From the NCBI GenBank assembly GCA_002269645.1, contig NIVC01001485.1, positions 1 through 64,000 of the forward strand: a stretch of 64,000 nt of DNA. Reading direction: 5' to 3'. Positions 1 through 58,113 of the stretch are shown here, in pieces (positions within the stretch are counted from its first letter, which is position 1; the number at the start of each line of letters is the position of its first letter). Source of the DNA: Macrostomum lignano. Its lineage: Eukaryota. The translations under genes were made by a program, and so were the position numbers. The notes beneath the pieces are model-generated. The model was not told where the DNA came from. It did not search any database and saw nothing but the letters and a program-made list of their open reading frames with translations.

Positions 1-370
1 GCCCTGTACACTGAGCAACCGCCCCCCATGCGGGGGACAGAAGAGCCCCTGTAGCTGGGGACAGAGAGCAGCCCCTGTAGGCAGGAGGGGTAGTGCGTGG
101 AGAAGCCGCCATCCCCCTGTAGCAGGGGACAGATAACAGGCGACCCCTGTAGCAGTATGAGGTGGGGTACAAAGAGACACGGGGTGCTGGGACAGAGAGT
201 GCGTGGAGGCACCCTGCGCTGCCCTGGCATGTCGCAGCACGCGGCGTGGACAGAGAGGGAGTATGAATCACACGAGCGGGAGAGCCCCGGCCGGAGAGAG
301 CGGCCAGTCTGGAGGAGCGCGGTGAGCAGACCGGGGGTGATGAGAGAGCTCCCCCCAGGGCAGTAGAGGA
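1..370. repeat. Left terminal inverted repeat of element A (partial)
   Basis: 1..272 is the near-exact reverse complement of 9660..9931; degenerate similarity continues to ~370/9570. Confidence 0.9.
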
Positions 371-449
371 CTTGAAAAGAAAAACACGTATTTTAGTTGT
401 TTCAGGTTCAGGCCATCCGGCAAACAGAGCAAAGCTCTCCAACAGTGTT

Positions 450-1079
450 TTATTTAGCATAAACTACGGGGTAGCGCCCCAACACATTAGCATAGTAGCG
501 AACAGATGCGTTCTGCAAGCAATTAACAATCAAGTAGGAGTAGGGCTCCCTAGTGGCGTCTTCGTACATTTGAACAAAACTTTTTGGGTTAGCGGGGACA
601 AGCTGCTTTGCAATATGGCGACTGTACTAACGTCCCGTACATTGCGGAACAATACAAGGTAGTTTGCGTTAAGGGATTGAGTGCGGTGCTCCTTGCCCTT
701 GGCAAACAGGTTTTGTACAAGGTACCAAAGCCGGAATCCCACATGGCTGACTTTGCGAGTGAAAAATGCGGTAAAAGCAGCGTTTTTTTCCATGGCTTGC
801 ATTTGATCATCGACAACGAGTAGAATATTCGGAGCGGGAACATAGGTTTCAGGGTTAAATGTAGACGAGCGAAAATTGACAGGGTACGGTAATTCAAACA
901 GTTCCGGGTCTGGATAGTGCCCAAACCAATCAACGCGAACAGGCTTAGGGTCCTGAAAAAACTCGTTTCGCAGCAATTCTTTAACAAGAGTTGTTTTTTC
1001 CGCTCTGGTTAACACCAGCAAAAATCGCCGAAGTATTTGGAGCAAACTTTAGAGCGTCAGGATCAATTGTTTGGTACAT
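450..1079 (-). pseudogene. Genome-packaging ATPase (A32/FtsK-like, Polinton type) with two apparent frameshifts
   Basis: ATG 1079 gives MYQTIDP...AGVNQSGK, then +1 shift at T6 run 994-999 to KTTLVKELL (Walker A); Walker B LLVVDD; QNLF motif; second shift near 610 restores DATREPYSYLIVN and stop at 450-452. Confidence 0.85.
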
Positions 1080-1113
1080 TTTCAGGGCGAGTTGACACTC
1101 CAAATATTAAAAA

Positions 1114-1551
1114 CTATTTTATTTGTAGAACATGTTTTCGAACCATCAAATCATTTTCAAGCAGATTGGTAGAGTAACATTCCCTTAAAATCTTTTCAAT
1201 CGACAACCCCTCTAAAAAGTGCTTTTCGGCCACAAAAATCACATGCGGCCCACACGCTACACTTAGAGGGTGTTGAACAGGGTGGCGATTCATAGCAACA
1301 GGTGAATGTACATGCTTCGAGATCCAAGCCGAGAGCAATTCCGGCACGGGTTCAATACACAGAGGGTCAAAAAATGTCACACTCTTATCATCGTGTAGGC
1401 AAATCAGTCCCCAGTGGGTGCCTGGCAGATTACCCGTGTCAAAATTAATTACATATGCAGCAGGGTAAACAGGTGCAGGAATTCTGTCGAGAGGGCAAAC
1501 GTGCACTTCCACAGGTAGTTTTAAACACTCCAAAATTTCCAACGTGTTCAT
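1114..1551 (-). CDS. Adenain-like (C5) capsid maturation cysteine protease
   Basis: Catalytic His GTHW, Asp FFDP, Gln/Cys QHPLSVACG in adenain order; 145 aa intact. Confidence 0.9.
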   Translation of the reverse strand: MNTLEILECLKLPVEVHVCPLDRIPAPVYPAAYVINFDTGNLPGTHWGLICLHDDKSVTFFDPLCIEPVPELLSAWISKHVHSPVAMNRHPVQHPLSVACGPHVIFVAEKHFLEGLSIEKILRECYSTNLLENDLMVRKHVLQIK

Positions 1552-2831
1552 ACGTAGTCCAGAATGGGCTGGCGGCCTCTAGTGATTTGCACCGCGTTGT
1601 CAAAGTAACCAAACACCAAAACGTTAATCCCGGCAGGTAGGGCTGCAGAAAACTTTATCTGTAGGGTCAGATTCCCTCTCTCGCGAGGCATGCTATGTCC
1701 ACCCAGTTCCATATCGGGCATTAGATTCCACGCAAATAAGCAGTAACCGGCGCGATAATCCGAATATGACAGGTCAATGTCCAAATCGCGATTCATTTTC
1801 CCTAGGCTCTTAAACAGCATGGCGTATTCGCGAGCATAGTTTTGGGCAGCGAACCTTGGAGTGAATGGTTGACCGCACAGACTGACACCGTCCTTGTACA
1901 GGGCCACACTGTCAGCCCCAAATGGCTCGAAATTGAACGGATTATGGGTAGCCACCCCGTTATATGCGGCACTATTTACCATTCCCATAATGACAAGTTT
2001 AGGCTTCTGCTCCGGGAAAATATTATTGATTGACACGTCGCGAACTCCTACAGCGACAGAGGTGTTGTGTACAACGAGGCGCTCGATGGGGTAGACTGCA
2101 TTCTGAGTTGCCAGCTGTTCTTCAATCTCCAAGGCCAGTTGGGGGTTAGCCTTTACCCGACGAACGTGTAATTTTGCACTTTGAAGAACCAACTTTGCAT
2201 CAACCCCTTCGGCGTGATTCTCTACAACGAATCCCGAATTTTGCAGAGTGAGCGTAACCACCATATCAGTGTAGGGTAGCAGCATACGATCGTTGGTGAC
2301 AAAAAAGTCGAGACTAAGAGGGCCATACAGGTGAAATGTTCGAGAACCGGCAGCCATCGCCTTGCGAGTTACAAAGCCAGGATTTCCAACCGCAGCCATT
2401 TGACCCCCAGCGTCTTTAGCGTAGCCCATCATCCGCAGTTGGTTAGACTTTGAATCAGACCCATAACTCAAGCATGTACGAATGTACGCCTTGTAGGCGT
2501 GGTTGTTGTTGCTAGACTCGATATGTGTACCATTTATGGAAAGAGACACGTTTTTGAACATGGTCTCCAAGAGGTAATTGATTGGCGCCACGTTTGAATC
2601 CGCCGCCAAATCGGCTCCATTAGCTCTTTTAATACAACCTTTAATCTCGAGATCAATGTCATTAAGATCGACAAACGTCTCGCCGCCCACAATTCTAAAC
2701 TCAACCACACTCGCATTTTCGACGCTGGCAACCGGGTGGATTTCTTCAGTAGTTGAACCTACAGCGGCAATCTGGTGGGCTCGAGGGGCAAAGAGCTCAA
2801 ACTCGGACTTTGTACACAGACACTCGGACAT
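1548..2831 (-). CDS. Double jelly-roll major capsid protein (Polinton PY/hexon-like)
   Basis: N-terminal ECLCTKSEFELF signature, 427 aa, NPFNF and terminal G.L.L...F...L...V.V.G.F strands typical of Polinton MCP; intact. Confidence 0.9.
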   Translation of the reverse strand: MSECLCTKSEFELFAPRAHQIAAVGSTTEEIHPVASVENASVVEFRIVGGETFVDLNDIDLEIKGCIKRANGADLAADSNVAPINYLLETMFKNVSLSINGTHIESSNNNHAYKAYIRTCLSYGSDSKSNQLRMMGYAKDAGGQMAAVGNPGFVTRKAMAAGSRTFHLYGPLSLDFFVTNDRMLLPYTDMVVTLTLQNSGFVVENHAEGVDAKLVLQSAKLHVRRVKANPQLALEIEEQLATQNAVYPIERLVVHNTSVAVGVRDVSINNIFPEQKPKLVIMGMVNSAAYNGVATHNPFNFEPFGADSVALYKDGVSLCGQPFTPRFAAQNYAREYAMLFKSLGKMNRDLDIDLSYSDYRAGYCLFAWNLMPDMELGGHSMPRERGNLTLQIKFSAALPAGINVLVFGYFDNAVQITRGRQPILDYV

Positions 2832-2860
2832 GTTTAGTAGACAGACTCGATTCGGCGAAT

Positions 2861-3205
2861 CTAATTGAAGCGGGGCTTTTTATTTATAGTGCTGAAAATG
2901 TCTGAATTGAGACGCTTCGGAGCCTTTTTTCTTCTTCGTCCGCTACCCCTTTGGGTAACCGTGTCTTTAAAGGCGTCCTTGGCAGCCTGAACAGAATTGC
3001 GCAGGACAGACTCCTTCAAATTGCCTCCTTGCTCGAGGCTATCGTTAACAGTAGTTGCTAGGGCTCTAGTACCATGACGGAGAACGTTTTTACCAAAACT
3101 CTTTAGAATTGGCAGCGCGAAGCGGGCAATGCTTCCAAACAAACCGTTGCCCCTCTGGGCGCCCGCGAAAACAGGCAAAGCTCCACCAATCAGAATAGAA
3201 GGCAT
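2861..3205 (-). CDS. Basic core protein (pVII-like Polinton protein)
   Basis: QRGNGLFGSIARFALPILK motif, basic RRRKK tail, LIGG/QRGNG candidate adenain sites. Confidence 0.7.
   Translation of the reverse strand: MPSILIGGALPVFAGAQRGNGLFGSIARFALPILKSFGKNVLRHGTRALATTVNDSLEQGGNLKESVLRNSVQAAKDAFKDTVTQRGSGRRRKKAPKRLNSDIFSTINKKPRFN
2881..2888 (-). promoter_or_regulatory. TATAAATA box upstream of MCP
   Basis: Exact TATAAATA on minus strand 50 nt before ATG 2831. Confidence 0.6.
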
Positions 3206-3245
3206 GATTAAGCACTAGGATATAGTTTACTGAGGCTGTGCTGTT

Positions 3246-3253
3246 TATTTATA
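3246..3253 (-). promoter_or_regulatory. TATAAATA box upstream of core protein
   Basis: Exact TATAAATA 41 nt before ATG 3205, overlapping penton stop. Confidence 0.6.
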
Positions 3254-4377
3254 GCTTCTTTTCGCGGATGTTAACGCTCAAGACGGTCTTGCCCCTCATT
3301 ACTTTTGTCATATCCCTGCCCATATCATCGTTAATTTGTACTTCAATAGTTTTGAATGGGTGCTTAACCAGCGGTAGATATGCCGGATTGACAAACTCGT
3401 AGTACTCGCGACCGCCCTGAACTTTGGGATCCATCGGTATAGCTCCCAACAGAGGAACTTTAACGTCTCCTACAATAACAGAATCGACTATGCTCGAATA
3501 GATGTACATTGTTTGTATTCCACCGGTTAATTCCATTGATGCGTTTGCGTAGAAATCCGATATACCGAAAAATGGGGTTGTATAATCATGCTCTGGGAAA
3601 CCAAGCACGCTGGTCAAGCGCCCCAGCCCAAACATGTAATCCACGAGCCAATGTAATAACACCTATTCGTAACTTCGCTGTATCCGAAAAAGTCCTTCTA
3701 GGTGCTGGAGCCGCTATGAGATCTTTGATCCGTTTCCAAATTAAATCGTTGAGTTCCTCCACCAATCTTTTAGGTGTACTATAGTATCCACCCTGCATAA
3801 AATAGATTTGATCAGACGCTGCGCTAGTAACTTGTCTTATTATTGGAGCGTGGTCCATTGACTGTACAGTCGGTTCCTCAACAACTGCGGTGATGGAGGC
3901 TGCACACCCCGCGTGTAATACGAGTTCAGTAGGTAGATCCTCATTAGACTCGAAGCCGGCGACTAGTTTAAACACCTTGGGTAGGGCATCCGGGAATTTG
4001 ATGCCGACGGTGGATTTTGAAGTATTCACAATCATAAAGGCGGTTGGGGATGTTCTTAAAAAGACAATTTTCTTATTATCCCCTTCAACGTATCGGATAC
4101 CGTTTAGAAAGCCGGAAATACATTCTTCAGGGGTTTTCAGACCCGCTGCGAGACAAAGGCTTGCAAACGACGAAGCCGTCAAGAGGCCCTCCTGTTCGCG
4201 AATGGTGATCGGTATAGATTTTTTGAAAGATTCAAATTCTTTGGTAAAGTAGATCCGTTCGAGGCAAACCTCATGATTCGGAAAGTGGAGAGTGTCCGGT
4301 AAATTAATAAAATAATGAGCCGGATTATTTTCGGGATAGTGCTCGGGGCACGCATTGCTAGGCAGAAAGAGATGCAT
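3249..4377 (-). pseudogene. Minor capsid protein (single jelly-roll penton, Polinton PX) with one apparent frameshift
   Basis: N-term MHLFLPSN..YPENNP.HYFINLP.TL; C-term MYIYSSIV..VIVGD.KVPLL..I...YLPL..TIEVQIND; ORFs 3586..4386 and 3249..3662 join by removing one G at TTTGGGCTG (~3628). Confidence 0.85.
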
Positions 4378-4389
4378 GGTAGCCACGCA

Positions 4390-5468
4390 TTAGTTATTAT
4401 TACGTTGACGTATATTTATAACTTCATTTACAGGTACAAATGAATTAAAAGTGTCGGGATAACCGCGCCAGCTAACGTAATGGTGCGCAACACCATTTAT
4501 TAACACGTTTCTACGCAAAACTTTATTGATTACAAAACGCTCGGGTCGGGTAGATTTGGACAGTTCATTGTAGTAAAACCGTCCCTCAATCACTTCACCA
4601 GACAAATCAGAAATACGATAAAAATGTGGGGGTCCAGGGCAAACTTTGGATATAATGTACACCTCCTCACTATACATGTCGTATGCCTCCTTGTCGAATG
4701 CCCTGCGAGATTTCGAAATTCTCACAAAATCCCCCTTTTTATATACGGGTCGTCTTTTTGCTGATCCGGGTAAAGCTTTTCCCACACACGCTTCTGATTG
4801 TGGAACCCTACACTTGACGGTTTCATCTCAATAGTAGAATGCGTCGTGTTGTTGTAATTGCCTATCAAATTAGGTAAGTAGTCAACCCAACGCCACGTGT
4901 TGTTGTGCTCAAAGTAGCGAGCCAGACGCTTTCGAAGAGTTCTAATCAGCCTCTCGGCCATGTTTGCCTTGTACACAGAGTTGGTGCTGTACATTTTAAC
5001 ATTATTGTCTTTTAGTATGCGGCGCATTCGCTGATTATAAAACTCGGTACCCCGATCCACGTGAAGGTAAAGGGGGCGGGCAGGGAAATCATTCGCCAAC
5101 ATTGACTCAAACGCTGCGGGGGTATCACTCTTTAGTTTAATTGCCCTACAAAAAGCCTGCTTACTAAGCACATCAATAATAACTAGTATATATTTATGTC
5201 CGTCATTCCAACGTTTGTATCGCGACATGTCCATCAAATCGGCTTGTAGAGTTTCCATGAATCCTCCCGACATTACTTTTCCCGTTTTAAATGTCCTGTT
5301 GACTCTCCGGTGACGGGTGTAACTCGGTTGGGTTTCTAGCCATTCCCTGGTTTGGCGTCTTGTCAGGTTTGGCGCCAGACGTTTGGCCTCCTGATAGACA
5401 CGGGCAGCATTTGAAAAAGCGGCGGCTCCTTGTTCGTAAACTCGACGAAGAGCGGTTAGAGCCCTCAT
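4390..5468 (-). pseudogene. Retroviral-type (rve) DDE integrase with C-terminal chromo-like domain, one apparent frameshift
   Basis: QADL / HVDRGTEF / MAERLIRTL catalytic triad; GD.VRISK..F.K; YVSWRGYPDTFNSFV chromo-like tail; ORFs 4722..5489 and 4390..4785 join near 4768. Confidence 0.9.
4413..4420 (-). promoter_or_regulatory. TATAAATA box upstream of penton
   Basis: Exact TATAAATA 36 nt before ATG 4377. Confidence 0.6.
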
Positions 5469-5601
5469 TGACAACAAGTGTGGATGCACAGCATGAATAG
5501 TTGCACGTAATGTCGGCTGGGGAGTTGTCTACACAAAGCTTTGACGCGGCTGCTGCTGCGCCCATGACCGCCGGGCGCGCGGTTATGTTTGGACTAGGGT
5601 T

Positions 5602-6228
5602 CTATTTATAAAGAGTCACGTATTTTTTCTTTTTCTCGGGTGGTCTTAGTTGGTAATCGTGATATTTACCCACCCCGGTACCTCGATCGACAAGTTTGGG
5701 CATAGCATTTACACCTTTGTTGCGCGTGGTCGTTAAATCGCGGGTGTCTGTCGCAATTGTGTGCTCATATTCATCGCGGTAATCGTCGGTACCAACCATA
5801 TGGTCAACCTTCTTTTCCTCCACAGGGAGCTGTTTCCGACCGAGCATAGACATTGGTATACGGGCCTTGTCTAGCAGAGCCCAGAAAGCGGTTGAATATT
5901 TCGGGTGATTATTAGTGCTGGTGGTGACGGCTTGTAGAAGATCAAAAACGTTGCTGCCACCCCAAGTTTCACCATCAAAAACGACTTCCCATGATTGGTT
6001 GTAATTTAGGCTGGGGTGCTTTTCTGTTAGTATATTCCATATACGTTGTTGCCTATCAGAAAATAGCTGCTTTGTCGTCTTTTGGGGTTTTACTTTAGCC
6101 AATTGGGTCTGTAGCTTTGCATTGTACTCTACAAGTTTTTCGTACTCCGATTTTGGGGCAATTTCTCGCGGAGTACCCTGTCTAAGCTGATTGAATTCCT
6201 CCTCGGGGACCACAACGTACTTGTCCAT
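5602..6228 (-). CDS. Conserved Polinton hypothetical protein
   Basis: MDKYVVVPE start and EVVFDGETWGGSNVFDLL...P...FWALLDKARIP segment resemble a recurrent uncharacterised Polinton/adintovirus gene. Confidence 0.6.
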   Translation of the reverse strand: MDKYVVVPEEEFNQLRQGTPREIAPKSEYEKLVEYNAKLQTQLAKVKPQKTTKQLFSDRQQRIWNILTEKHPSLNYNQSWEVVFDGETWGGSNVFDLLQAVTTSTNNHPKYSTAFWALLDKARIPMSMLGRKQLPVEEKKVDHMVGTDDYRDEYEHTIATDTRDLTTTRNKGVNAMPKLVDRGTGVGKYHDYQLRPPEKKKKYVTLYK

Positions 6229-6230
6229 TT

Positions 6231-6620
6231 TCAACGTCGTTGTCCTAGCAGACCACCAAACAGTCCAGTGATTAACGGTGCAGCAATCTTGGCGAGAATT
6301 GGTAGGAATCCTCCAACTTGAGGGTCCGATAGTATCATATTCTTCTTCCTATTTATAGACAGTTTTTTGTCGGCCATGTCATGCAGGGCTTCTCTATAAC
6401 GTTTCAACCTTGCAAACTGTCTAGGGGATAGATCGATATTGCCCTTGAGTACATTGTGGCTTAACTCGCACAGACACTGCATCAACTCATTATCGGCTCC
6501 CCTAATAATGGCCCTCCTTCGATGTGGTCGCGCGTCACCGAGCTCCTCTAGCTCGCGACGGCAAGAACAAAGACGAGAAATTCCGTTTGTCATTATTAAG
6601 GTGGTAAGCATTGCGTGCAT
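6231..6620 (-). CDS. Small basic virion protein with QxGGFLP amphipathic tail (pX/pVI-like)
   Basis: CLCELSHNVLKGNIDL and QVGGFLPILAKIAAPLITGLFGGL; GG/F and GG/L candidate adenain sites. Confidence 0.65.
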   Translation of the reverse strand: MHAMLTTLIMTNGISRLCSCRRELEELGDARPHRRRAIIRGADNELMQCLCELSHNVLKGNIDLSPRQFARLKRYREALHDMADKKLSINRKKNMILSDPQVGGFLPILAKIAAPLITGLFGGLLGQRR

Positions 6621-6638
6621 ACATGTGCATATTTTGTT

Positions 6639-6646
6639 TATTTATA
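6639..6646 (-). promoter_or_regulatory. TATAAATA box upstream of pX-like gene
   Basis: Exact TATAAATA 19-46 nt before candidate ATGs 6620/6611/6593. Confidence 0.55.
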
Positions 6647-6658
6647 AGCAAAGCATAA

Positions 6659-7138
6659 TTAGAGTTGCAGAATAGCAGTCACGTGGTCGTACATTTTACA
6701 CAGTTCGTCATAGTTTCGTATTCCTAGGAACACTAACCGACCATTCTTTCCGCACAGCAGGCACTTGGCCTTGCGGAATGGGGACTTTATTACAAGCCCA
6801 TTGAATACCTCACTCTCCCACTCAACCCAGCGCGAGCTCGAGTTGGCAAGGCGGAAAAAGTTTGGCTTAACATTAACTTCTGCACGATAAGTACCGGTAG
6901 TGATAACAACAGAGTTTGGTTTACATTGAGCAAAAAGACGCAGCACATCGTTGGTTGATTGGCAACCAAAAACAATGGCAGATAATGAACGTTTGAAAAA
7001 GTTTATTGTACACTTTCCGATCCTCAGGTTGTACAATGCCCGGGGTCTATGAAACGTTCTAGCGCGCGCCCAGTCCAAGTTCGGTAGGTGGTTCCACCTT
7101 GCGCAAAACACCCTGTTTACGCACACGACGTTCTGCAA
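6659..7138 (-). CDS. Divergent TATA-binding-protein (TBP)-like protein; no ATG in frame
   Basis: LQNVV start vs TBP IQNIV; WESEVFNGLVIK..CLLCGKNGRLVFLG..ELCKMYDHVTAIL aligns by eye with TBP YEPELFPGLIYR..LLIFVSGKVVLTG..EIYEAFENIYPIL; ~160 aa matches TBP core size. Confidence 0.65.
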   Translation of the reverse strand: MQNVVCVNRVFCARWNHLPNLDWARARTFHRPRALYNLRIGKCTINFFKRSLSAIVFGCQSTNDVLRLFAQCKPNSVVITTGTYRAEVNVKPNFFRLANSSSRWVEWESEVFNGLVIKSPFRKAKCLLCGKNGRLVFLGIRNYDELCKMYDHVTAILQL

Positions 7139-7739
7139 GCGGTTTTTTCGGTTGCTTTTGTTTCCGCTCAGCTCCACCAGCTCCGCGCTTGCGTCCTACC
7201 TTGATTTTTAACGGTGGAATCCAGTAGCAGCGGTCAAACGCCTGCTTGGGAGCTTCTATGAATTGCAGTTGTTGAATTTTCGGCACCGCGGTTAGAACCG
7301 AGTCGTGAATCACCGCCGTGTCTAGGGCGAACAGTACTCTATAGTAGCCCGTCTTGTTCTTGTAGTCGGTGCACAACTTGCCGCTCTTGTCGTACATTTT
7401 AAAGTCGTGAGCCAATCCGAATGCAGCGCTGTCGCAGCCAAAAGTGGGGTTGTACCCCAATAGCGCCATTCCTTGGATAGAGAGCTGGTGACACACGGAA
7501 TTGAACGCTTCTGGTATGCAGCTCTCCAAGTGCTTTTGGGAAAGAATGATGAATTCGCGGCCTTCATTGTCGGTTCTCACACCCTTGACAATCAGTACGG
7601 GCGTCGCATTGGCAAGATAGAGAGGGCCCTGTTCGTCGTACTCAATGTCGTACGTCTCGGTTCCGTTGTAGCTTGGACCTCTCGACTTGAGAGAGAATAG
7701 GTCGATCCTAACACTATTGTAGTCTTGAACGGTATCCAT
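7059..7739 (-). CDS. Hypothetical protein, possibly OB-fold ssDNA-binding protein
   Basis: ATG 7739 (MDTVQDY) with TATATAAG 44 nt upstream; beta-rich C-half GYYRVLFALD..IQQLQF recalls phage/NCLDV SSBs; assignment is weak. Confidence 0.4.
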   Translation of the reverse strand: MDTVQDYNSVRIDLFSLKSRGPSYNGTETYDIEYDEQGPLYLANATPVLIVKGVRTDNEGREFIILSQKHLESCIPEAFNSVCHQLSIQGMALLGYNPTFGCDSAAFGLAHDFKMYDKSGKLCTDYKNKTGYYRVLFALDTAVIHDSVLTAVPKIQQLQFIEAPKQAFDRCYWIPPLKIKVGRKRGAGGAERKQKQPKKPLAERRVRKQGVLRKVEPPTELGLGAR

Positions 7740-7782
7740 GTTGCTGCTGCTGCTGAGAGTGGGTCTCGCTCCTGAGCGCCTC

Positions 7783-7790
7783 CTTATATA
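7783..7790 (-). promoter_or_regulatory. TATATAAG box upstream of SSB-like gene
   Basis: 44 nt before ATG 7739. Confidence 0.5.
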
Positions 7791-7827
7791 CCCTTGGCGC
7801 GGAGGGTGGGGTGGCTGGGCGTTTTTG

Positions 7828-8343
7828 TTATAGTCCTTCTTTAACGACACTTTCCGGTGTTGGAAATCCGGAAAAAATAAACCTTTTGTTTCGATCTTCT
7901 GGTCGAGGGGTTTGAGGCGTGTCGTGAATGCAGCTGCAGTGAGGGTTGATAGTCAACTTCGCTAGCACTGGTCTACTGTGTTTAGGTCGCCAAATCCTTT
8001 GGTGTTCCGTCCACGAGGGAGCAATCGGCTGGTGATTCCGGTACCGTATTTTCTCACGATGATCCTCTTGTAATATTGGGGCAATTATCTGCTCCATTCT
8101 TTGAAGATTGGCTTTGAAATGCATCTTGTCTCTAAAGTAGTAGTCAATTCGGGCATCTGTATATTCTTGGGTGCTGTAAGGCCCTTGCCCAATTTCGTCT
8201 ACCTCGACATTAAAGGTGACTAATCGTTCGGGAATTGGTTTGCCGTGACAAATGCATAACCAGTCTGTGGACTTTTTCAGGGTCTCGTACTCTGCCCTTT
8301 CTTTGCTCGATAAAAGCGGGTAGTCTCGAGAAATCCAGCTCAT
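7828..8343 (-). CDS. Hypothetical protein (171 aa)
   Basis: ATG start overlapping upstream stop; fits the compact gene packing; no recognisable motif. Confidence 0.55.
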   Translation of the reverse strand: MSWISRDYPLLSSKERAEYETLKKSTDWLCICHGKPIPERLVTFNVEVDEIGQGPYSTQEYTDARIDYYFRDKMHFKANLQRMEQIIAPILQEDHREKIRYRNHQPIAPSWTEHQRIWRPKHSRPVLAKLTINPHCSCIHDTPQTPRPEDRNKRFIFSGFPTPESVVKEGL

Positions 8344-8693
8344 TCCTCTGACTCGTCAGATTCGTCGAGAAAGAAATAGTGGAAGAAATTGTCGACTCTA
8401 TTCTTTTCAACTGCACAAAGTATTTTGTCTGACAGGTGAAATTCGCAGTCTCCTTTTACGTACAGGCGCTTCCCGTCGATAACTTTGATAGATGCGCCGC
8501 CTCCGAGATCGTAATCTGTGCAGCTAGTGTCCAGAAATTTCATTCGATGCCATTGTGCTCGACTAAACACGGCTCCTGGACAGCTACAGTTTTGACAGTG
8601 GATGCGGAAACGCGGCTTGTTTGGGTCCCAATATCCCACTTCCAGCACTGCGTTGTCAACGTGGGTGTACACTATTTCCGATTGCCAGTACAT
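8340..8693 (-). CDS. Small protein, possibly PC4-like ssDNA-binding/coactivator fold
   Basis: PGAVFSRAQWHRMK resembles PC4 GISL..EQW..LK; acidic tail DESDESEE; TATAAATA 32 nt upstream. Confidence 0.4.
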   Translation of the reverse strand: MYWQSEIVYTHVDNAVLEVGYWDPNKPRFRIHCQNCSCPGAVFSRAQWHRMKFLDTSCTDYDLGGGASIKVIDGKRLYVKGDCEFHLSDKILCAVEKNRVDNFFHYFFLDESDESEE

Positions 8694-8724
8694 TTCGATA
8701 TTGTTGAGAAATACCAATTTTATT

Positions 8725-8732
8725 TATTTATA
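8725..8732 (-). promoter_or_regulatory. TATAAATA box upstream of PC4-like gene
   Basis: Exact TATAAATA 32 nt before ATG 8693, overlapping Fic stop. Confidence 0.55.
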
Positions 8733-9507
8733 GGCTGCCGTCTGAACAGATTTCCAACCATTCCCTCCACTGTAGAACGGTTCTCTCAATTGATAAAAGT
8801 AAATACGCCGCTAGGAGCCCCCGGTTGCTGCTGCGCGCTTCGTAAAGACAGTTGAGATATGTGTCTCTATTTGCATACGCAAATGATACGGGTTCTGGCA
8901 GAATCCGGTTGATCAACTTTGATAATAACAACCTAGCAGTTCTACCATTGCCGTCGCTAAATGGGTGTATGGTGAGAAACTTTTCTAGGAAATATGCTCC
9001 TGTCACTACTGCATCACGCAAGATTTGTGGCTCTTTTATGTCTCTAGTTAATTTTACCAGCTGCCGTTCAATATTTTCTGGGGCACTGTAATACATACTC
9101 GCGCCTGCTGGCTTGGCGTGCTTAATTCTATACGATCCTGCATTCGGGAGCAGTCCTCTACACACGCGTGTGTGAACTTGTCTAACAAACTCTGTGTCAA
9201 TTAACCCCCTCGTGTCATTGAGGTGTTTTGCCGCACTCCATAGATTGGCTGTGACCATACAGGACCCGGTTTTTATCGCTTCTTCTGCTTCCTCCCAAGT
9301 CAACGCCACCTCTCTCTCCTCAATGTTTACTTCAGTTACGAATGCCAGCCGGGCTAGATACGTGAATTCTAAGCGCTCCTTTGCGGTCAATCCCTCGATT
9401 CTTTTCCTAGTGTCTGATAACAATCTTTCAATGAGGGGTAATCTGGCGCGCACGCTCTCGTTGCTGAAATAGGGGTTATCAGTTATACCCTCTTCCATGT
9501 TCTCCAT
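8728..9507 (-). CDS. Fic-domain protein (AMPylase-type)
   Basis: Complete canonical motif HPFSDGNGRTAR; IKHAKPAG flap region; EVNIEERE..LTWEE..EAIKTG resembles the N-terminal inhibitory helix of FICD-type proteins. Confidence 0.9.
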   Translation of the reverse strand: MENMEEGITDNPYFSNESVRARLPLIERLLSDTRKRIEGLTAKERLEFTYLARLAFVTEVNIEEREVALTWEEAEEAIKTGSCMVTANLWSAAKHLNDTRGLIDTEFVRQVHTRVCRGLLPNAGSYRIKHAKPAGASMYYSAPENIERQLVKLTRDIKEPQILRDAVVTGAYFLEKFLTIHPFSDGNGRTARLLLSKLINRILPEPVSFAYANRDTYLNCLYEARSSNRGLLAAYLLLSIERTVLQWREWLEICSDGSL

Positions 9508-9569
9508 ACAGAGGGTTTTGTACACTGCTTCTATTTATGGTTGCATTAACACGTTGCTCGCGGCCTGTC

Positions 9570-10251
9570 TGTCCCTCTGCAGCCTGGGGGGGCTCTCTAT
9601 CACTCACCGCCGGTCTGTCCCTCTACCACCCCGGCCTGGGGAAGCTCTCTGTCCCTCCGTGTGACTCACACTCCCTCTCTGTCCACGCCGCGTGCTGCGA
9701 CATGCCGGGGCAGCGCAGGGTGCCTCCACGCACTCTCTGTCCCAGCACCCCGTGTCTCTTTGTACCCCACCTCATACTGCTACAGGGGTCGCCTGTTATC
9801 TGTCCCCTGCTACAGGGGGATGGCGGCTCTCCACGCACTACCCCTCCTGCTACAGGGGCTGCTCTCTGTCCCCAGCTACAGGGCTGCTCTCTGTCCCCCG
9901 CATGGGGGGCCGGTTGCTCAGTGTACAGGGCTGCGTCAGCATCGGGGGTTTCCTTCCTACACTAACCGCGTGCACACGACATTGGTGGGAGGGGCGGGAA
10001 TCCCCCCGCCGGATGTACACCCGAGGGAGGCCCATGCGCTGAAGGTACACTCGCTGGACGCCCAGCCGGCCGGATGTACACTCGCGGGAGGCCCACCCCG
10101 CTGGAGGTACACTCGCTGGACACCCACCCCGCTGGAGGTACACCCCGGGGGAGGTGGTACACCCCGAGGGAGCACCTTGCCGCGGTGCTAGAGGCCGACA
10201 TCAGCCCGACGGACCTTCGCAAAATCGAGCCATTCGGAATCCCTTAGTAGT
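9570..10251. repeat. Right terminal inverted repeat of element A
   Basis: Mirror of 1..370 up to 9931; continues through GC-rich GTACAC repeats to terminus ...CCCTTAGTAGT (10251). Confidence 0.85.
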
Positions 10252-10469
10252 AGTGCTAATTTGCAAAGGGTATTGCTAATCTGGGTGAGCAGCGCTAATC
10301 GGGGAGAGCAGTGCTAATCTGACGCATATAATAAAATAATAAATATGTAAGGGAATTAAATTGAACTTGCAAGTTGCAGAAACATTTTAAATGGTTTCGA
10401 TTATCCAGAAGCAATATAGCCATAAGCAAAGATTAGTGCAATGTACAAAACAGTACTGGTGAACGATGA

Positions 10470-11899: not shown

Positions 11900-12225
11900 G
11901 GGTTATTCCTGAGATGTCAAGGCTTACTGGGGAATTTCTGAGATGTTAAGGCTTACTGGGGAAATGCTGAGATCTCAAGACTTACTGGGAAAAGTTTTCA
12001 GATCTCAGAGCTTACGGGGGGAATTGCTGAGATCTCAAGGCTTACTGGGGGAATTACTGGGATGTCAAGGCTTACTGGGGGGATTGCTGAGATGTCAAGG
12101 CTTACTGGGGAAATGCTGAGATCTCAAGGCTTACTGGGGGAATTGCTGATATGTCAAGGCTAACTGGGGGAATTGCTGAGATGTCAAGGCTTACGGGGGG
12201 AATTGCTGAGATGTCAAGGCTCATG
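11900..12225. repeat. 30-bp minisatellite (GGAATTGCTGAGATGTCAAGGCTTACTGGG)
   Basis: About 10 tandem units. Confidence 0.9.
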
Positions 12226-44051: not shown

Positions 44052-45709
44052 TCCCTCCACACGTAGATGAAAAAAAAGAAAAAAACAGCAACTAAAAAGA
44101 AACAAAAACAGGAGAAAAGAAAATACTTCCCAGCACCACGACAACAATAACAGAAACCAAAAAATCGAACACCACCCAAAGCCGTAAACAAAAAAAAGTC
44201 GGTCAGGGAAAAAAACAAAAAAACGTTACTACGTAGGACGCAGATTGTTGTCGATTTTCAGATGTTTTGACGCAAAAAACGCAAATTATACTACTATCCG
44301 AAAATGAAGTAAGTAGTATACAAAAACGCTATCCTAAGCGTGATTCAATATGTAGTTGTAATAATCCATGTGCTCATATTAATTCCATGTACATTAATCC
44401 CTATCTATCTCAAATTGTACATTAATTCCATGTACATTAATCCCTATCCCAAATTGTCTATCCCCAATTCTATATGTACATGTGCATTAATCCACATGTA
44501 CAGTGTCATCCCCAGACGGCCCGCGCCCACCAAGATTACAACTCGAAACCCTACTACATGTACAACCTCATCCAAATGAGTCAACTAATTGTATAGCTCA
44601 CATCGTAATGTATATTTCCAATGTACATTCTCAGAGACAGATTTGAATAATACGGGTCGGAGTCTATATGTACATCGATAGCCTCTATACTCATATCCGC
44701 TACATACCCCAAAAATTAGGTATGTACATTTTTACCCTCGGAGACTACAGGTTTGAATATGCTGAATAATTTATTCGAAATCACTTATAAAATACACATA
44801 CTTTCATATAGAGGCGGGCCTGTACAAACTCTCGCCAAGCAATGGGGTGGAGGTTGCGTCATCCAAGTCTCTCCCAAGTCTGTCCCCCCAAATACAAGAC
44901 TGTGTTGAAGCAGTGCTTTATATTTCTATTGACAGTGGGTATGATACAAGAAGCTTCGTCGCGCTTTAATTACAGTAAACCATCCCCTCGAAGCTCCTAT
45001 ACTGAACGCTGAATCACCCTTTAACTCGGACCATAGTCAAATTCAACCCTGTTCGAAAACAGCCACCCCTCCGATGTTCACCAGACTCGTCTTCACAGCG
45101 CAGACCCCATAGCAAAATCGGGCTAAATTTTAACACTCGCCCCTGTTCTCTCTGTCCCCCTTCTAAATGCCAAGGAATTTCGACCCTCTCTCCATTTTCA
45201 GTGTACAGACAGATCTTTCCACAGCACCGACCCTATATTAAACTTCATTCAGCAAAACCCCTCTCTTCTCCGATTACGTCATCCATGCCGCCCCAGATAG
45301 CAAGAAACCAACTTTTAATGCACATATCAACCCCGCGAATCTGAGCAAATCCGAGTCCGCCAACCTCTACCTGCATTGACAAACCCCAGCTGCATTTGTA
45401 AATGTACACAGCCTATGAATCAGTGTCTCCACCGCATGCAATTCTGATTTACTTGATTCTAAACTTTGTAAATTGTATAAGTCACCCTTGCGTTATACTA
45501 GAAGTAGTGAAGTCCACATATTTAAATACGTGAGGCTATTCAATTCTGCCTCTCCGCCTCCCCTACCTTCTCACTTCAAGCTTTCAGACTTGGTCTTTGA
45601 GACGGTCGGTTTAATCTGTTAGAAGCAGGAATGAATCATGCACTGACCTCTCCATACAAAGTAAAGTTGGAATTTCAAACAAGAAATTAGGTTATTTTAA
45701 AAGCTAAAT

Positions 45710-46570
45710 GACTAGAAATGCACATTTTTTTTTCATTAAAATACAATTTTTCACAGTTTTTATGCATTTTTACGTTAAAATGCAGACTTTATTGATCAAA
45801 ATCAGTAGTTTCATCACTAGAAACCATACTTTCAACAGCTAATTTGTCCAAATATCGGTTTCAACTTGACCTTAGACAGCTTTTAAGCAGGAATGAACCC
45901 CACACAAACATCCACAAGCCAGCCCAAAATCAGCCAAAGACATGGCTATTGAAGCCTAAATTGCTAGAAATGAGCATTTTTTATAAGAAAATACAATTTT
46001 TCACAGTTTTTATGCATTTTTACGTTAAAATGCAGACTTTATTGATCAAAATCAGTAGTTTCATCACTAGAAACCATACTTTCAACAGCTAATTTGTCTA
46101 AATATCGCTTTCAACTTGACCTTAGACAGCTTTTAAGCAGGAATGAACCCCACACAAACATCCACAAGCCAGCCCAAAATCAGCCAAAGACATGGCTATT
46201 GAAGCCTAAATTGCTAGAAATGAGCATTTTTCATAAGAAAATACAATTTTCACAGTTTTTATGCATTTTTACGTTAAAATGCAGACTTTATTGATCAAAA
46301 TCAGTAGTTTCATCACTAGAAACCATACTTTCAACAGCTAATTTGTCCAAATATCGCTTTCAACTTGACCTTAGACAGCTTTTAAGCAGGAATGAACCCC
46401 ACACAAACATCCACAAGCCAGCCCAAAATCAGCCAAAGACATGGCTATTGAAGCCTAAATTGCTAGAAATGAGCATTTTTTATAAGAAAATACAATTTTT
46501 CACAGTTTTTATGCATTTTTACGTTAAAATGCAGACTTTATTGATCAAAATCAGTAGGTTTCATCACTAA
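45710..46570. repeat. 250-bp tandem repeat in left arm of C (3 full copies plus partial)
   Basis: Unit starts at 45844, 46094, 46343. Confidence 0.92.
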
Positions 46571-48396
46571 AAACCACAATTTTAACACAAAATTATCACA
46601 AATGCTACTTCTGGAACTCTGAGACAGCTTTGAGCAGGAATTATATTCGCACACGGATTACCCGAGCCAGTCCAATTTCCACTAAAACCATGGTTTTTTT
46701 AAAGCTAATTCTTAGAATTTCTCATTCTTTCGTTTAATAAAGGCCAATTTTCACAGTTTTATTATTTTCTAACGTTAAAATGCGAAATGCGAATTGATCA
46801 AACTTAGTAGTTTCATCCCAAAAACCATAATTTCAACCGCTAATTTGTCCAAATGCTGATTTCAAAGTTGGCAAGAGACAGCTTTCGAGCAGGAATGAGT
46901 CACACACTGATCTCCATATGCACACCCGGCCCAAGTTGGAATTCCACCCAAGACATTTTCATTGAAAGCTAAATTACTAGAAATTGCACATTTTCGTTTT
47001 AAAAAGGTCAATTTTTCACAGTTTTTACTCTTTTTTACGTTAAAATGCTGACTTTATTGAACAAAATTAATCACTTCATCAGCAGAAACCATAATTTTTA
47101 CAACTTAATCGTCAAAAATGCTGTTTCATCATTCAAATGTATGTATTTGGTACATGTAATACCCCTCAAGAAGTCAGGGAAGGGATTATTCTTGAATTGG
47201 GTTAAAACGTACAGTTTGCTATAAACCTAGCTATAATAATTTTAACATATACAGTCGGCGAAGCGGCCCGTTGATTTCGATTGACATTTAAACTGTCCCT
47301 CCCAGACCTCTCTCTCTCTCCTTCTGCACCCACCGAGAAAAGTGACTCATGCGGCAAACAGCTGGACAGGTTTAGTATATTACTGAATTGGCAAAACAGC
47401 CAACACCCAATGGTCATATTAGACTCGTCTTCACAGCACAGACCCATGTAGAACAGAACCACTCGTCCCTGTCTCTCTGACCTTACCATTTCTAACTGTC
47501 AAGGAATTCCGACCCCTACCTCTCCAATTTCAGTGTATAAACAGATATCTTCACAGCACGGACCCATATATTGAGCCTCCTCCAACCAAAACCCTATCTT
47601 GATTACGTCATCCACCTCCCCATAGAAGCAGTTAGCAAGAAAAAAAATTTCGATGCACATATAACTACGTAATGCGTATATTGTTGTCGATTTTCAGATG
47701 TTTTGACGCAAAAAACGCAAATTATACTACTATCTGAAAAATGAAGTAAGTAGTATACAAAAACGCTATCCTAAGCGTGATGTGGCAATATGTAGTTGTA
47801 ATAATCCATGTGCTCATATTAATTCCATGTACATTAATCCCTATCTATCTCAAATTGTACATTAATTCCATGTACATTAATCCCTATCCCAAATTGTCTA
47901 TCCCCAATTCTATATGTACATGTGCATTAATCTACAGTGTCATCCCCAGCGCGCGCGCACCAACATTACATGTACAATGCTACATGTACACAGAGGCGAG
48001 AATTACTAATCTCATCTACTACCAAATGAGTCAACTAACCGTGTAGCGTACATCATGTATAAGTATTTACAATGAAGATATATTTACATTAAACCAGTAG
48101 CATATTACAGGAAATAATTTATGTACAGCATTACCAGCAAATAGAATATACAGAAAATTTTACATTGTTTTTCATTAATTTTCTTTTCATAAATGATTTT
48201 AAACAAGTTTGACACGCAAAATATTTACAATAGATTTTTACATTGGCAATTTCGCTGCATACAATACAAAAATGCTTTATGTACATTTGTATAGTAGTAT
48301 GTAACTCTTCATTAATTTAACATGCAAAATATGTACAACAATAAATAGATTTTACTCAGTCAAATTTAACAAGATATTTATTAAGCAAGGGCCACA

Positions 48397-51300
48397 TTAT
48401 TTATAACCATAAGGCCTGCTGCAGGCCCCGTACACGCGCTTCGTCAGGACGCGCTGAAACGTCTTGTCCATATTGATTGTGTGTATGGTACAAGACGCCT
48501 TGTCGCGCCTAAACTGAAGCTGCGGCAGCTGCAGGGAGCCGCCGTGTAGTAGGGCACTGCGCAATTCATCGCTGCGCTCCCGAATCTCCGGAGTCAGGCG
48601 GATGCCCTTGCACTTCAGGACCTGACTCCGGGCACCGGCCGCATCCTCGACAATGTAAGTGTAGAGCTTGGGCCCTCCACTTACAAAGTCGGTCATCCGG
48701 CTGCCTGCGGGCACCTCATCGGTCCACATTCCGAGGCTCGTGCCATGGGGCGGCTCCCATTGGCCCTCGGAATGCCGGTAAACGACCCTGTGTGGGAGAG
48801 AAAACGAGATAATTGCTAACTATTTACATGTAATCAATTCTAAAATAATTTTCCCAATGCAATACTTACGAGTCAGTGTCGCAGTAAATGGCCCGTTCGC
48901 CGAGCCCCTCCAATGCCTCATACAGGCGCAGCCGGGCCTGCGTGGTCGTAAAGACTCCGATTGGCACATTAGAGTACCGGAACGGCCGCTGATTAAAATA
49001 GCGGTGCCGGTACTCTAGCAGCATAAACTCGCTGCCAATCGGTTCGCAGGCCTTGACTTTGAGGTTGGGGTCGGTCAGCCGGGCGAGCCAGTCCTCGTAG
49101 CTGGATACAATTTCTGTCGATGTCAGGTCATCACGCTGACAAAATTTGCCCCAGAGCCTGTGTGTTGTGAAAAGAAGTGCTACTGTTAGTAGAAGAAGAA
49201 AATCATTTAAAATACAAAAATTTATGAATACTTACGAATTCAAAAAGATTTTCGCTACAAAGCGAAGTCCTGGGTTGGGCTCGACCTTGTCCAGCGTGAC
49301 GCCCTCCTTGGCGTAAAAATCGGCAATGTAGGCGGCCTTGTCTTCATCCGACATGCCGGGGGAACCGCTCGACTCAGCCTTCAGCTTGAGAAAGGTGCTG
49401 ACATAGTCACTGAACAGACCGGTCCGCTTCTCTGTCCAGTAGGCCAGCGCGTGCACCGCCTGCAGCCGGTAGCCCAACTGGAAGGCCTTCCGCAGCTCCG
49501 GCGTTGCCCAGGTACCAGTCAGTGCCCGCTGCTGGTCAGAGTGGTCGCAGCACTCGCCGCACTGCTGCTCCATACAGGTGCGGCAAAGCCCAAAAAAGAG
49601 CTTCTTTTGCACCCTGTAGGGCAGCAGCGGAATGTGCAAATCTGACGGCGGCAGCACTGTCACCTTGGCAATGCCAAAGTAGCTAGCCAGCGCGTCAGAA
49701 TCGAGCACTTGCGGCGTCGGATGTTGCACCGGGTGGCCAATCGGGTATGGGTCTTTCGACTGCACCGTCGGGTACAGAGAGACCTGCCAGTTGAAATAAA
49801 GCATTATTTTTTTTTCATAAACTGTATTTTTTGCAAAATATTCTACTATATTAGTAGTATCGCTACTCACCACATCCCGATATTTGAGAGTCTCAGTCTC
49901 GCTGGCCACAGCATGCGGGATAAAGCACTCTACGCGGCCGCCGTAGAGCGCATCCTCCATCTTGAGCGGAGCGCGCAGATGTGCAGTTGCGGCGATAAAG
50001 TCGGCCTGCGACGCCAATACAGTGTCGTACTCATGCTCCCAAATGACTCGAACACTGTAATTGTGCCGCTCCAACTCGCGAGTGAACCACTCAGTCTCGT
50101 GGCGAATATGGCTCAGAGGCTGCCGTTTGAGCGGGTGAACGACATCCTGATCGGGCATACACTGCTCGCAGCCATGGTAGAAACAGCCATGAAACTGCAA
50201 AACAGTGTTGCTGGCCTCATCGAAGCCGTCCACCTTGCGGCCGAGAATGACAGCCTCGCCGCCAGTCGAGTCGCAGGTTCGCAGCCGCCCGCCAAATTCG
50301 GTGGCATTCAAATAGGCCAGCCACTTGCGCGCCTTGAACGACTGCTGGTCGGCCTGCCGGGCAATCACGCCGACCGAGTTGGGCTCCATAAACCGGGTGG
50401 TGAAAACGGCCATTGCCAAACTGGCAATCGTATTGGCCTGTACAAATGGTTCCAGGCCGTCGCAAATTTCACCAATTATTGCCCTGTACTTGATGCAGCC
50501 CTCGCGAAGCAGGACTGTGTCGCTCAAACAATAATCGAGATACTCCCGATTAAAGTTGAACAACTCGCCCTGTCGCGAGGCTAGCCAAGCACAGATTGAG
50601 TCATAGTCCTTGTTTGCTTTGCCGCCATAATATTCAATAGCCGGGTAGGGGCCAACGTAGTTCCAATTAGCCGGCTTGTTAAACTCGTGGGGAAAGGTCC
50701 CCTTGGCCAGCTTTGTGTCAGCGAGCCCCAGCGCTTTGGGGAATTGCGCAAGCGGGATTGGTATGAAATTTAACGAATCTTTGAATACCAATTTATCCAC
50801 CGTCATGCTCATTAGCCGGCTGCCCTGGAACAGTACTTGTGGCCGCTTCTTGGCCAGGCCGTTGAGTAGAGCGCCAAGCAGTAGGAACGAATCGTAGCCT
50901 GATGCGTTGTGCGCTACAACAATGGCGCCGCCTCGGAAAGCTGTGCTTAGCCAGGTGAAAAACGCATTCAGCGAGGCCGGGCCCACAGCCACAAAATCGG
51001 CCATTTGGCAGGCGCAGTCTGAGTGGCTGACGCAATTGGAGAATTCCTCCCCCAGATCGCGGCCAGTCAGACAATTGGCAGTGCTATGCAGGCCATTGCA
51101 GAGGCGGCAAGTCTCGCGCGGAAACGCCCGGCCGGAGCAGGTCTCGCAGCACGTGACGGCAGTCACCAGGTGCACGTGATGCTGCTTCTCCTCGTCCGTG
51201 TATGTTTCCGTATCGTAGAACACGTACGGCATAGTCGAAGCTTTCACTTTGGGAGCCTTGACGAAGCACAAATGCGAGCCGGCCTCGTCGTACTGTTTAC

Positions 51301-53979: not shown

Positions 53980-54080
53980 TGTGGCTGATGCTACTGCTGC
54001 TGTTGTTGCTGATGCTGCGGTTGTGGCTTCTGCTGCTGCTGGCTGCTTCTGCGGATGCGGCTGCAGCAGCTCTCATCCGC

Positions 54081-54088
54081 TTTATATA
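54081..54088 (-). promoter_or_regulatory. TATATAAA box upstream of pPolB exon 1
   Basis: About 100 nt before ATG 53979. Confidence 0.5.
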
Positions 54089-57000: not shown

Positions 57001-57630
57001 TGGGGAAGACACTGTAGATTAATGCACATGTACATATAGAATTGGGGATAGACAATTTGGGATAGGGATTAATGTACATGGAATTAATGTACAATTTGAG
57101 ATAGATAGGGATTAATGTACATGGTATTAATATGAGCACATGGATTATTACAACTACATATTGCCACATCACGCTTAGGATAGCGTTTTTGTATACTACT
57201 TACTTCATTTTTCAGATAGTAGTATAATTTGCGTTTTTTGCGTCAAAACATCTGAAAATCGACAACAATATACGCATTACGTAGTCATATATGAACAATG
57301 CGAACCAAGCAAATCCGCGCGTCTACCAAAGCCAACCCTACCCTGCGTGTTGTAATTGCATTTGTCAATGTACACACCCTATGAATCAGTGTCTCCTTCT
57401 TTGGAACACACGAAGGCATTAGTCAGAAAGTTTGGATGCAATTAAAAACTCTCTCGATGCTTTGCGTATAAACGAGTAATCGATTGAATCAATTGTACAC
57501 TTGACACATTTAATTACGTGCTGCCATGCAACGGAAAGACAGGATAATGGGGTGGGTGGTCACGCAGCCTCATTCTCTCTTTCCTACTGATTTTTCATTA
57601 TCTATCAATCTCAGCTCTTTCCGGGGCAAA

Positions 57631-58113
57631 ACATTTTGCAAAACATAGACTAAACTTTCAAATCATTCGTTTACACAACCAACTGTCTATATTAATGGTG
57701 GGGTTATTATTACTTTACAGAAAAACGCATGTCCTGTGTTACGACACTGCCTAGCAACCGTATAATTTTTGCAGGTCAAGGAGCATTAATACATGAACTA
57801 ACACTCCTATTTTGCATTCATTGAGAGGCGGAGGCAGCGGGCAGAGGGGGGGCCGGACCGTGACTGTGCGCAGCACAGTCCCTGTCTCTACTGCCGCCTC
57901 CGCCCGCTGCCGCCGCCTCTCAATGAATGCAAAATAGGAGTGTTAGTTCATGTATTAATGCTCCTTGACCTGCAAAAATTATACGGTTGCTAGGCAGTGT
58001 CGTAACACAGGACATGCGTTTTTCTGTAAAGTAATAATAACCCCACCATTAATATAGACAGTTGGTTGTGTAAACGAATGATTTGAAAGTTTAGTCTATG
58101 TTTTGCAAAATGT
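57631..58113. repeat. Perfect 201-bp-arm palindrome in the centre of element C
   Basis: 57631..57831 is the reverse complement of 57913..58113; GC-rich 81-nt loop with GACTGTGC-GCA-GCACAGTC hairpin. Confidence 0.92.

Follow-up and report, generated by a model that had tools for sequence, protein, structure and literature searches.

Introduction

Intact Polintons (Mavericks; also polintoviruses or adintoviruses) described so far carry all their core genes, intronless, on one molecule, which measures 12.7-24.6 kb in vertebrates (PMC8097293; here and below, statements on published work reflect the available portions of the sources cited). Here we analyse a window of 64,000 nucleotides from the flatworm Macrostomum lignano (GCA_002269645.1, contig NIVC01001485.1, positions 1 to 64,000, forward strand), whose base 1 is base 1 of the contig (C1485 in our numbering) and which belongs to a genome of 764 Mb. 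Positions 1-10251 are a single copy of a Polinton family of about 10.5 kb, the left tip being removed by the contig start. We call this capsid/integrase family A1 and its relative A2, and the families of polymerase-carrying elements in the same genome P1 and P2. Our data suggest a bipartite Polinton: P would copy the two segments, and A would integrate and probably also package them. To this reading we assign a probability of roughly 0.78.

A1 resembles Polintons in its terminal inverted repeats (TIRs), 6-bp target-site duplication (TSD), retroviral-type (rve) integrase, double-jelly-roll (DJR) capsid protein, ATPase, putative protease and conserved open reading frames (ORFs) (PMC4028283, PMC8097293), and the P elements resemble them in their PF03175 protein-primed family B polymerase (pPolB). 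In contrast to Polintons, the core genes are here divided over two elements of about 10 kb, the pPolB gene has introns, and the short-repeat ends are of (ACT)2 type and read 5'-ACTACT...AGTAGT-3', a reversal of the usual motif 5'-(AGT)2//(ACT)2-3' (PMC8097293). A pPolB is a defining Polinton feature (PMC5499653, PMC4028283); A1 alone lacks it, and A plus P possess it.

The nearest precedent for two matching-ended segments with a Polinton-derived pPolB is found in the bidnaviruses. In Bombyx mori bidensovirus the genome is divided into two linear segments that are packaged apart and end alike, one of them with such a polymerase, but its DNA is single-stranded, its capsid is of parvovirus type, pPolB and the main capsid gene share a segment, and there is no integrase (PMC4061559, PMC8502044). 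The A and P elements share the matching segment termini; A has a DJR capsid instead of a parvovirus-type one and no SF3 helicase, and replication and structure lie on different segments that both integrate. Tlr elements, along with Polinton-like viruses (PLVs), resemble A1 in having capsid genes and an ATPase, and in Tlr an rve integrase, without pPolB (PMC4028283, PMC11161782); they have a replacement replication protein (SF1 helicase fusion or primase-helicase), whereas A1 lacks one and its cognate polymerase element lies in trans. Polinton satellites and non-autonomous TIR derivatives retain only their ends and use trans-supplied enzymes, as do two non-coding elements described below (C56 and the outer palindrome of the window); A and P, in contrast, each retain a full module under purifying selection, and no autonomous parent with the same ends is present in the data examined. 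Polydnaviruses are likewise segmented double-stranded DNA (dsDNA) integrated in an animal genome, and in the available parts of multipartite-virus reviews dsDNA appears only under them (PMC5680193, PMC5094692). However, they are domesticated, replication-deficient and not self-spreading, whereas A and P would insert anew through enzymes that they themselves encode.

Our literature search found no report of a bipartite Polinton; Repbase, subscription journals and supplements could hold one. For Polintons in M. lignano it returned one passing mention only, and the available portions of a nematode Polinton survey and of a 2026 preprint do not mention segmentation.

Results

Absence of a polymerase from A1 and A2

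Thirteen co-oriented minus-strand genes occupy positions 460-9507 of the window (Table 1), with a biggest intergenic gap of 136 nt. This bears out the original prediction, made from the sequence of this locus, that same-strand ORFs tile the interval between two TIRs and leave no room for a pPolB. Of the two repeats in that prediction, the right one stands at about 680 bp (9574-10251), and the left one is cut to its inner 354 bp or so. In transcription order the genes encode a Fic protein, 117-, 171- and 226-aa proteins, a TBP-like protein, 129- and 208-aa proteins, the rve integrase, a predicted minor capsid protein, a 114-aa protein, the major capsid protein (MCP), a putative protease and an ATPase. 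The ATPase, integrase and minor capsid genes are frameshifted in the window copy, and the raw ORF list therefore shows more than 13 pieces. Among the A1 copies examined the ATPase frame is unsplit in 7 of 8 and the minor capsid frame in 6 of 10, and the integrase is a single 359-aa frame in 3 of 10. We rejected introns and programmed frameshifts as the source of these splits, since each gene runs in one unbroken frame in A2 and in further A1 copies.

Pfam gave no PolB or helicase match in 17 gene frames (14 + 3) and 24 alternative frames, and no SF1/SF3 helicase or primase that could substitute for pPolB. A pPolB profile run over 13,657 six-frame pieces (A1/A2 loci plus controls), a check that had been proposed with the original prediction, matched the control alone, the best non-control E value being 0.42. 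A profile from Endonuclease-VII-type polymerase frames also found no match, a weak negative in that its targets held no positive control. The longest unassigned A1 ORF, counted from ATG, is 226 aa.

The absence extends across the family. In at least 17 copies, 8.1 kb or more of the 8.5-kb A1 interior is present at 98-100% identity, with no polymerase insert (19 of 112 candidates were scored; two more are broken by an insert). Two facing A1 end motifs occur on 20 contigs and span 10.30-10.74 kb in 17 of them. In the three longer copies the extra length is a P-element transposase (C4), 3.4 kb of non-coding insert (C2210) or a tandem array that is likewise non-coding (C56); a polymerase concealed in longer copies is rejected for C4, C2210/C355 and C56. 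The C4 insert (G000:C4:388075-391565, L122), which lies within the TIR of the A1 copy, is an intact-looking THAP9/P-element transposase with a 981-codon frame. Exact 6-bp TSDs flank 12 of 14 two-ended A1 copies, with 11 distinct sequences; of the exceptions, one is missing its last bases and one has unrelated flanks. The many polymerase-less copies of the same size exclude a recent deletion or an assembly gap as the source of the absence.

In the sister family A2 the MCP is 88% identical to that of A1 and gene order is kept, without the Fic and 117-aa genes. None of 10 A2 loci contains a pPolB, and 8 of them have exact TSDs. Synonymous sites between A1 and A2 are near or at saturation (pS 0.59-0.83), and the ratio of nonsynonymous to synonymous rates (dN/dS) is 0.03-0.13 where measurable. 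Since pPolB is missing both from the A1 copies and from A2 at this divergence, its absence is old, and the sequences indicate a polymerase-less capsid module that has been spreading long-term under purifying selection. Hence the proposal that lack of a polymerase is the normal state of the family agrees with the A1 copies and with all the A2 loci; copies with different TSDs, aligned as had been suggested, belong to a wholly polymerase-less family, and a sister copy with a pPolB at a junction was sought among A1 and A2 copies and not found. Beyond that proposal, our comparisons suggest that the polymerase has not been lost from the system but is located on a separate cognate element.

It is conceivable that A1 instead depends for its copying on replication or repair enzymes of the host, or on a gene that it carries but that went unrecognised (the 226-, 171- or 117-aa ORF), with P as unrelated cargo that borrows the A integrase. 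These three ORFs do lack assignment, and PLVs and Tlr elements swap pPolB for other replication proteins (PMC11161782). However, the ORFs are too short for a polymerase or helicase and resemble neither, A1 retains trinucleotide-repeat ends typical of protein-primed replicons, and its continuing cassette exchange with P1 (see below) implies co-replication. We consider this explanation very improbable.

Polymerase genes on separate elements

The genome has many intron-split pPolB genes, in two groups about 64% identical to each other. Ten P1 and six P2 elements taken from the genome are TIR elements of 8.8-10.4 kb, apart from two longer P2 copies (13.8 and 15.1 kb), and exact 6-bp TSDs flank all two-ended cases (P1 9/9, P2 6/6). 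Integrase, MCP, minor capsid, ATPase and protease gave no match in 6,420 frames of these 16 elements, and the control loci matched. A PC4-like protein (E 0.034 in P1) is present in 9 of 9 P1 and 1 of 7 P2 elements scanned.

Three intron positions are common to the P1 and P2 pPolB genes, one of them in the DxxSLYP motif. Contigs from three putative RNA runs, each of a different study, lack GT-AG introns of P1 pPolB: two introns are missing in every run and a third in one. No such joint on the P1 copy was seen in the single putative DNA run. RNA of the P1 polymerase is spliced. Both segment types are under purifying selection, with dN/dS values of 0.03 for the MCP and 0.13 for the integrase (A1 against A2) and 0.09 for pPolB (P1 against P2).

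The polymerase element in the window itself (Table 1), whose polymerase is 100% identical to a UniRef polymerase model, was considered as the partner of A1 and rejected, its ends matching A2 instead. UniRef polymerase entries that are as much as 100% identical bear the name Macrostomum lignano. Two fold-back copies were also seen. One, at G000:C1090:36570-47863, is a P1 copy with the PC4-like gene and the polymerase start on both arms, and the other, at G000:C1313:243594-257956, is an A2 copy whose 3.7-kb inverted arms double the ATPase-protease-MCP block. Both fit errors of strand-displacement replication.

Shared termini pair A1 with P1 and A2 with P2

The ends of A1 and P1 start with ACTACTA and those of A2 and P2 with ACTACGTA. 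The following nt 8-27 form a hypervariable cassette, with a mean pairwise difference of 32-44% within each family. In A1 the cassettes differ by 39% on average, yet the MCP genes are 99.5-99.8% identical, which implies that ends move independently of bodies. When the first 27 nt were compared, the nearest other class was P1 for 30/30 A1 ends, A1 for 19/19 true P1 ends (one false motif match removed), P2 for 20/20 A2 ends and A2 for 12/12 P2 ends. In-register 10-mers in nt 8-27 are held in common by A1/P1 (32) and A2/P2 (19), and by none of the four non-cognate pairs (0 each). One complete 27-mer is identical between A1 and P1. The two ends of TSD-flanked copies carry differing cassettes in 3/11 A1, 1/9 P1, 2/8 A2 and 0/6 P2 cases. 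Cognate A and P elements show no relationship in their TIR bodies past about nt 31.

A body-blind search for A1/P1 end variants gave 68 facing pairs among at least 184 ends. Of these pairs 43 span 8-10.2 kb, 12 span 10.2-11 kb and 11 are under 8 kb; the remaining two measure 11.3 kb (a folded-back P1) and 13.9 kb (an A1 copy with a non-coding insert, and the sole pair of 12 kb or more). Two unassigned facing pairs that were checked are P1. From these lengths, no ACTACTA-type element was found that is roomy enough for both gene modules.

These lengths bear on the possibility that A1 and P1 are two independent non-autonomous derivatives, both dependent on some monopartite helper that went unseen or was not assembled and has identical ends; the ends would then be common to A1 and P1 through the helper and not through service to each other. 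Monopartite Polintons are present in the genome, C56 and the outer element of the window, which are non-coding and have the same ends, indicate that such ends can be parasitised, and the searches give lower bounds. Against a helper stand the lack of a long element in the 68 facing pairs and the five monopartite polymerases scanned, too remote from the P type for a tblastn match, four of them with an Endonuclease VII domain. Furthermore, the pattern is seen twice, with different ends, and purifying selection has preserved the genes of both halves through saturated synonymous divergence, something for which a pure parasite would have no use. We regard a helper as unlikely.

The element on C56 (G000:C56:643541-661960; L120, L121) is 18.4 kb long, with A1-type ends and diverged A1-like TIRs. 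It has no Polinton genes, and a 623-bp tandem array makes up most of its interior. Judged by its sequence, it is a non-coding rider on the A1/P1 system.

Discussion

A bipartite reading of A1 and P1

Collectively, the bipartite reading draws on the complementary gene sets, the co-varying ends common to both elements, the integrase-type TSDs on the integrase-less P, purifying selection, and the occurrence of two parallel pairs. Protein-primed polymerases initiate on short terminal repeats. The pPolBs of Polintons have an N-terminal terminal-protein domain (PMC11161782). In the mechanism that we propose, the P1 pPolB with such a domain would initiate at the common ACTACTA ends and copy both segments by strand displacement, P supplying terminal protein, polymerase and single-stranded DNA-binding protein (SSB; the PC4-like protein) to both. 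The A1 integrase would insert both segments, and the A1 capsid, ATPase and protease would package each of them separately, as is suggested by the similar lengths of A1 (about 10.5 kb) and most P1 copies (8.1-10.1 kb). We infer that the terminal 27 nt of A1 serve as replication origin and integration end. Cassettes might swap between co-replicating genomes via template switching or end pairing in trans, and the older-diverged second pair, A2 and P2, would work likewise with its ACTACGTA ends.

A stronger statement would be that this is a multipartite dsDNA virus of the DJR lineage, with separately packaged and separately integrating capsid/integrase and polymerase segments that complement each other from distant sites, and with the 27-nt termini as a diversifying, exchangeable compatibility code that keeps A1+P1 and A2+P2 apart. 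We give this even odds. The gene contents of A and P are complementary and non-redundant, as in multipartite genomes, and the size match together with the intact morphogenesis genes points to packaging of each segment in its own particle.

A different history has been considered, in which P is a self-sufficient linear replicon resembling a plasmid or transpoviron, and A arose separately as a virus lacking a polymerase, the two later becoming obligate partners; P would perhaps never be packaged and would spread only within cells. The unrelated TIR bodies of cognate elements, the host-type introns common to the P1 and P2 polymerases (which suggest long nuclear residence) and the roughly threefold excess of P1 over A1 ends favour it. 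On the other hand, the members of each pair are alike in size, near 9-10.5 kb, as a common capsid limit would give, and A plus P make up the core gene set of a single Polinton. We think this history quite unlikely; it differs from the bipartite reading in origin and packaging only, and mutual complementation would still be required.

Several observations weigh against the bipartite reading. The P1 nt 28-50, a 23-nt subterminal motif, are common to the non-cognate A2 and not to A1, so the pairing history is not simple; an older re-pairing of segments is suggested. The end search took in part of the cassette variants (184 of 187 ends listed), the 11 facing pairs under 8 kb indicate that many elements with such ends are short deletion forms, and end-motif counts are unequal (A1 59, A2 68, P1 199; these are motifs, only part of them checked for a polymerase). 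Monopartite Polintons with their own pPolB and integrase, which could supply either function, occur in the same genome at 5 of 6 distant-MCP loci and on C393. The only monopartite element with resolved ends, C114, has ends AGTAGTAG of the usual AGTAGT type. Genome-wide protein searches scored 91 of 974 candidates. Outside the host, MCP relatives lie on short contigs and show no polymerase partner, none of the polymerase matches listed being nearer than 32% to the P type. The splicing evidence covers the P1 polymerase only, and the putative RNA runs contain A1 words. Finally, particles, episomes and trans-complementation in the A1/P1 system are postulated, all data being genomic.

Monopartite Polintons and relatives

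The single element C393 unites the core gene sets that A and P divide between them: pPolB, PC4-like and TBP-like genes and a capsid module. In the stretches examined, the TIRs of most monopartite families were not found, nor was a polymerase on C297. An AT-rich monopartite element at G000:C2506:62000-74600 (L124, L125) has an intronless pPolB and capsid/ATPase-like genes that were missed by A1 queries, and by sequence it appears to be a further distinct Polinton family. Outside the host, three MCP relatives were found at 80-81%; viral contigs gave no relatives with gene context, and metagenome contigs gave one decayed MCP locus at 29% (L123).

Genes and boundaries of the A1 element

Table 1. 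Coordinates of A1 features and of the P2-type elements in the window (strand "." where none applies)
Feature	Position	Strand	Remarks
Left TIR, inner part only	1..354	.	outer ~320 bp removed by contig start
A32/FtsK-type packaging ATPase, Walker A GVNQSGKT	460..1110	-	frameshifts near 600-620 and 965-1000 in window copy
Putative cysteine protease (adenain/Ulp1-like), 145 aa	1114..1551	-	PF02902 E 0.061, weak
Double-jelly-roll major capsid protein, 427 aa	1548..2831	-	model and Foldseek
114-aa basic protein, candidate core/DNA-binding	2861..3205	-	open in 10/10 copies; ~80% to A2
Predicted minor capsid (penton-like) gene	3249..4377	-	frameshift near 3640-3700 in window copy
Retroviral-type (rve) integrase, chromo-like tail	4390..5468	-	PF00665 E 7.5e-10, chromo E 0.04; frameshift near 4730-4830 in window copy
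208-aa conserved Polinton ORF	5602..6228	-	homologues in monopartite elements C114, C393
129-aa conserved Polinton ORF	6231..6620	-	27-34% to ORFs of four monopartite elements
TBP-like gene	6659..7195	-	PF00352 E 9.5e-5; TBP structures best E 0.003; dN/dS 0.11
226-aa protein	7059..7739	-	model pLDDT 41; phage SSB rows at E 0.13-2 only
171-aa ORF, also in A2	7828..8343	-	
117-aa ORF, not in A2	8340..8693	-	
Fic-domain protein, accessory, not in A2	8728..9507	-	PF02661 E 6.8e-14
Right TIR body, A1-specific	9574..10224	.	
Terminal 27 nt: ACTACTA + 20-nt hypervariable cassette	10225..10251	-	common only to P1 polymerase elements
6-bp TSD AGTGCT, right-hand copy	10252..10257	+	matching left copy only on contig C59
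Outer palindromic element, P2-type ends, TSD AACGTT	44228..62496	.	hosts nested P2 copy
P2 polymerase-only element, 9.6 kb, ACTACGTA ends, TSD CATATA	47664..57285	.	partner of A2, not of window A1 copy
Protein-primed family B polymerase gene of P2	48397..52824	-	PF03175 E 1.1e-27; at least 4 GT-AG introns, one within DxxSLYP motif

Pfam alone gave the A1/A2 ATPase no name. The A2 orthologue matched Pox_A32 clusters at 0.98, and the A1 protein is 33-43% identical to ATPases of monopartite Polintons. The A1 protease is 27-38% identical to MCP-adjacent proteases of monopartite elements and gave no PDB sequence match. The MCP model (pLDDT 79.7) matched PBCV-1 Vp54 in Foldseek with an E value of 4e-17, along with the Sputnik and mavirus MCPs. 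The C-terminal part of the predicted minor capsid protein matches monopartite elements; the penton-like label is a provisional one, given by position. The 114-aa basic protein is a candidate core or DNA-binding protein, and the 129-aa ORF is presumably PW-like.

The TBP-like frame overlaps the end of the 226-aa gene. It lacks an ATG in every one of the 10 A1 copies examined, yet is under purifying selection. A non-AUG start, splicing or a frameshift fusion is possible. The monopartite elements C114, C393 and C297 also carry TBP-like genes, that of C297 being joined to a deoxynucleoside kinase. On the A1 coding strand, 6 of 10 TATA-like motifs sit 20-65 nt upstream of a start codon (p 4e-6), a placement that would fit separate promoters and a role for the element's TBP-like gene. 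For the 226-aa protein there is a weak hint of an OB-fold ssDNA-binding protein; an assignment as SSB was rejected and kept as a hint only, the model being poor, the fold matches not significant, and the atlas and PHROGs blank.

At 10251 the right tip of the window A1 copy ends in ...TTAGTAGT, and AGTGCT comes next. This hexamer also precedes the left end of the A1 copy on contig C59, which is probably the other half of the window insertion.

Other features of the window

The right flank of the A1 insertion (10450-17700) consists of host satellite arrays with 13/22-bp and 29-30-bp units. At 19139-24880 on the minus strand there is a single, apparently intronless 1913-codon open frame resembling an adhesion G protein-coupled receptor (GPS motif, and a seven-helix region by eye), with related fragments near 26900-27500. 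The outer palindrome at 44228-62496 has 250-bp tandem repeats, for which no coding role was seen. Just to its left are decayed transposase-like frames, MULE-like by eye (42911-43843, minus strand), and its right end is adjoined by a Gypsy-like reverse transcriptase/RNase H/integrase frame (62502-63998, minus strand).

Implications

Polintons are defined by polymerase and integrase together, and a split into replication and structure segments would, if true, extend multipartitism to the DJR dsDNA lineage. Integration lets the segments wait in one genome, which removes the cost of co-infection and is a suggested reason for the split. Pipelines that demand intronless ORFs, or a pPolB neighbouring the rest of the core set, would drop both halves, as the available descriptions of nematode and vertebrate surveys indicate, so that such systems may be overlooked elsewhere. 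With a laboratory flatworm as host and a spliced polymerase RNA, whether animal Polintons form particles becomes approachable by observation, and the hypervariable ends common to A and P allow the origin specificity of protein-primed replication to be approached from the sequence side.

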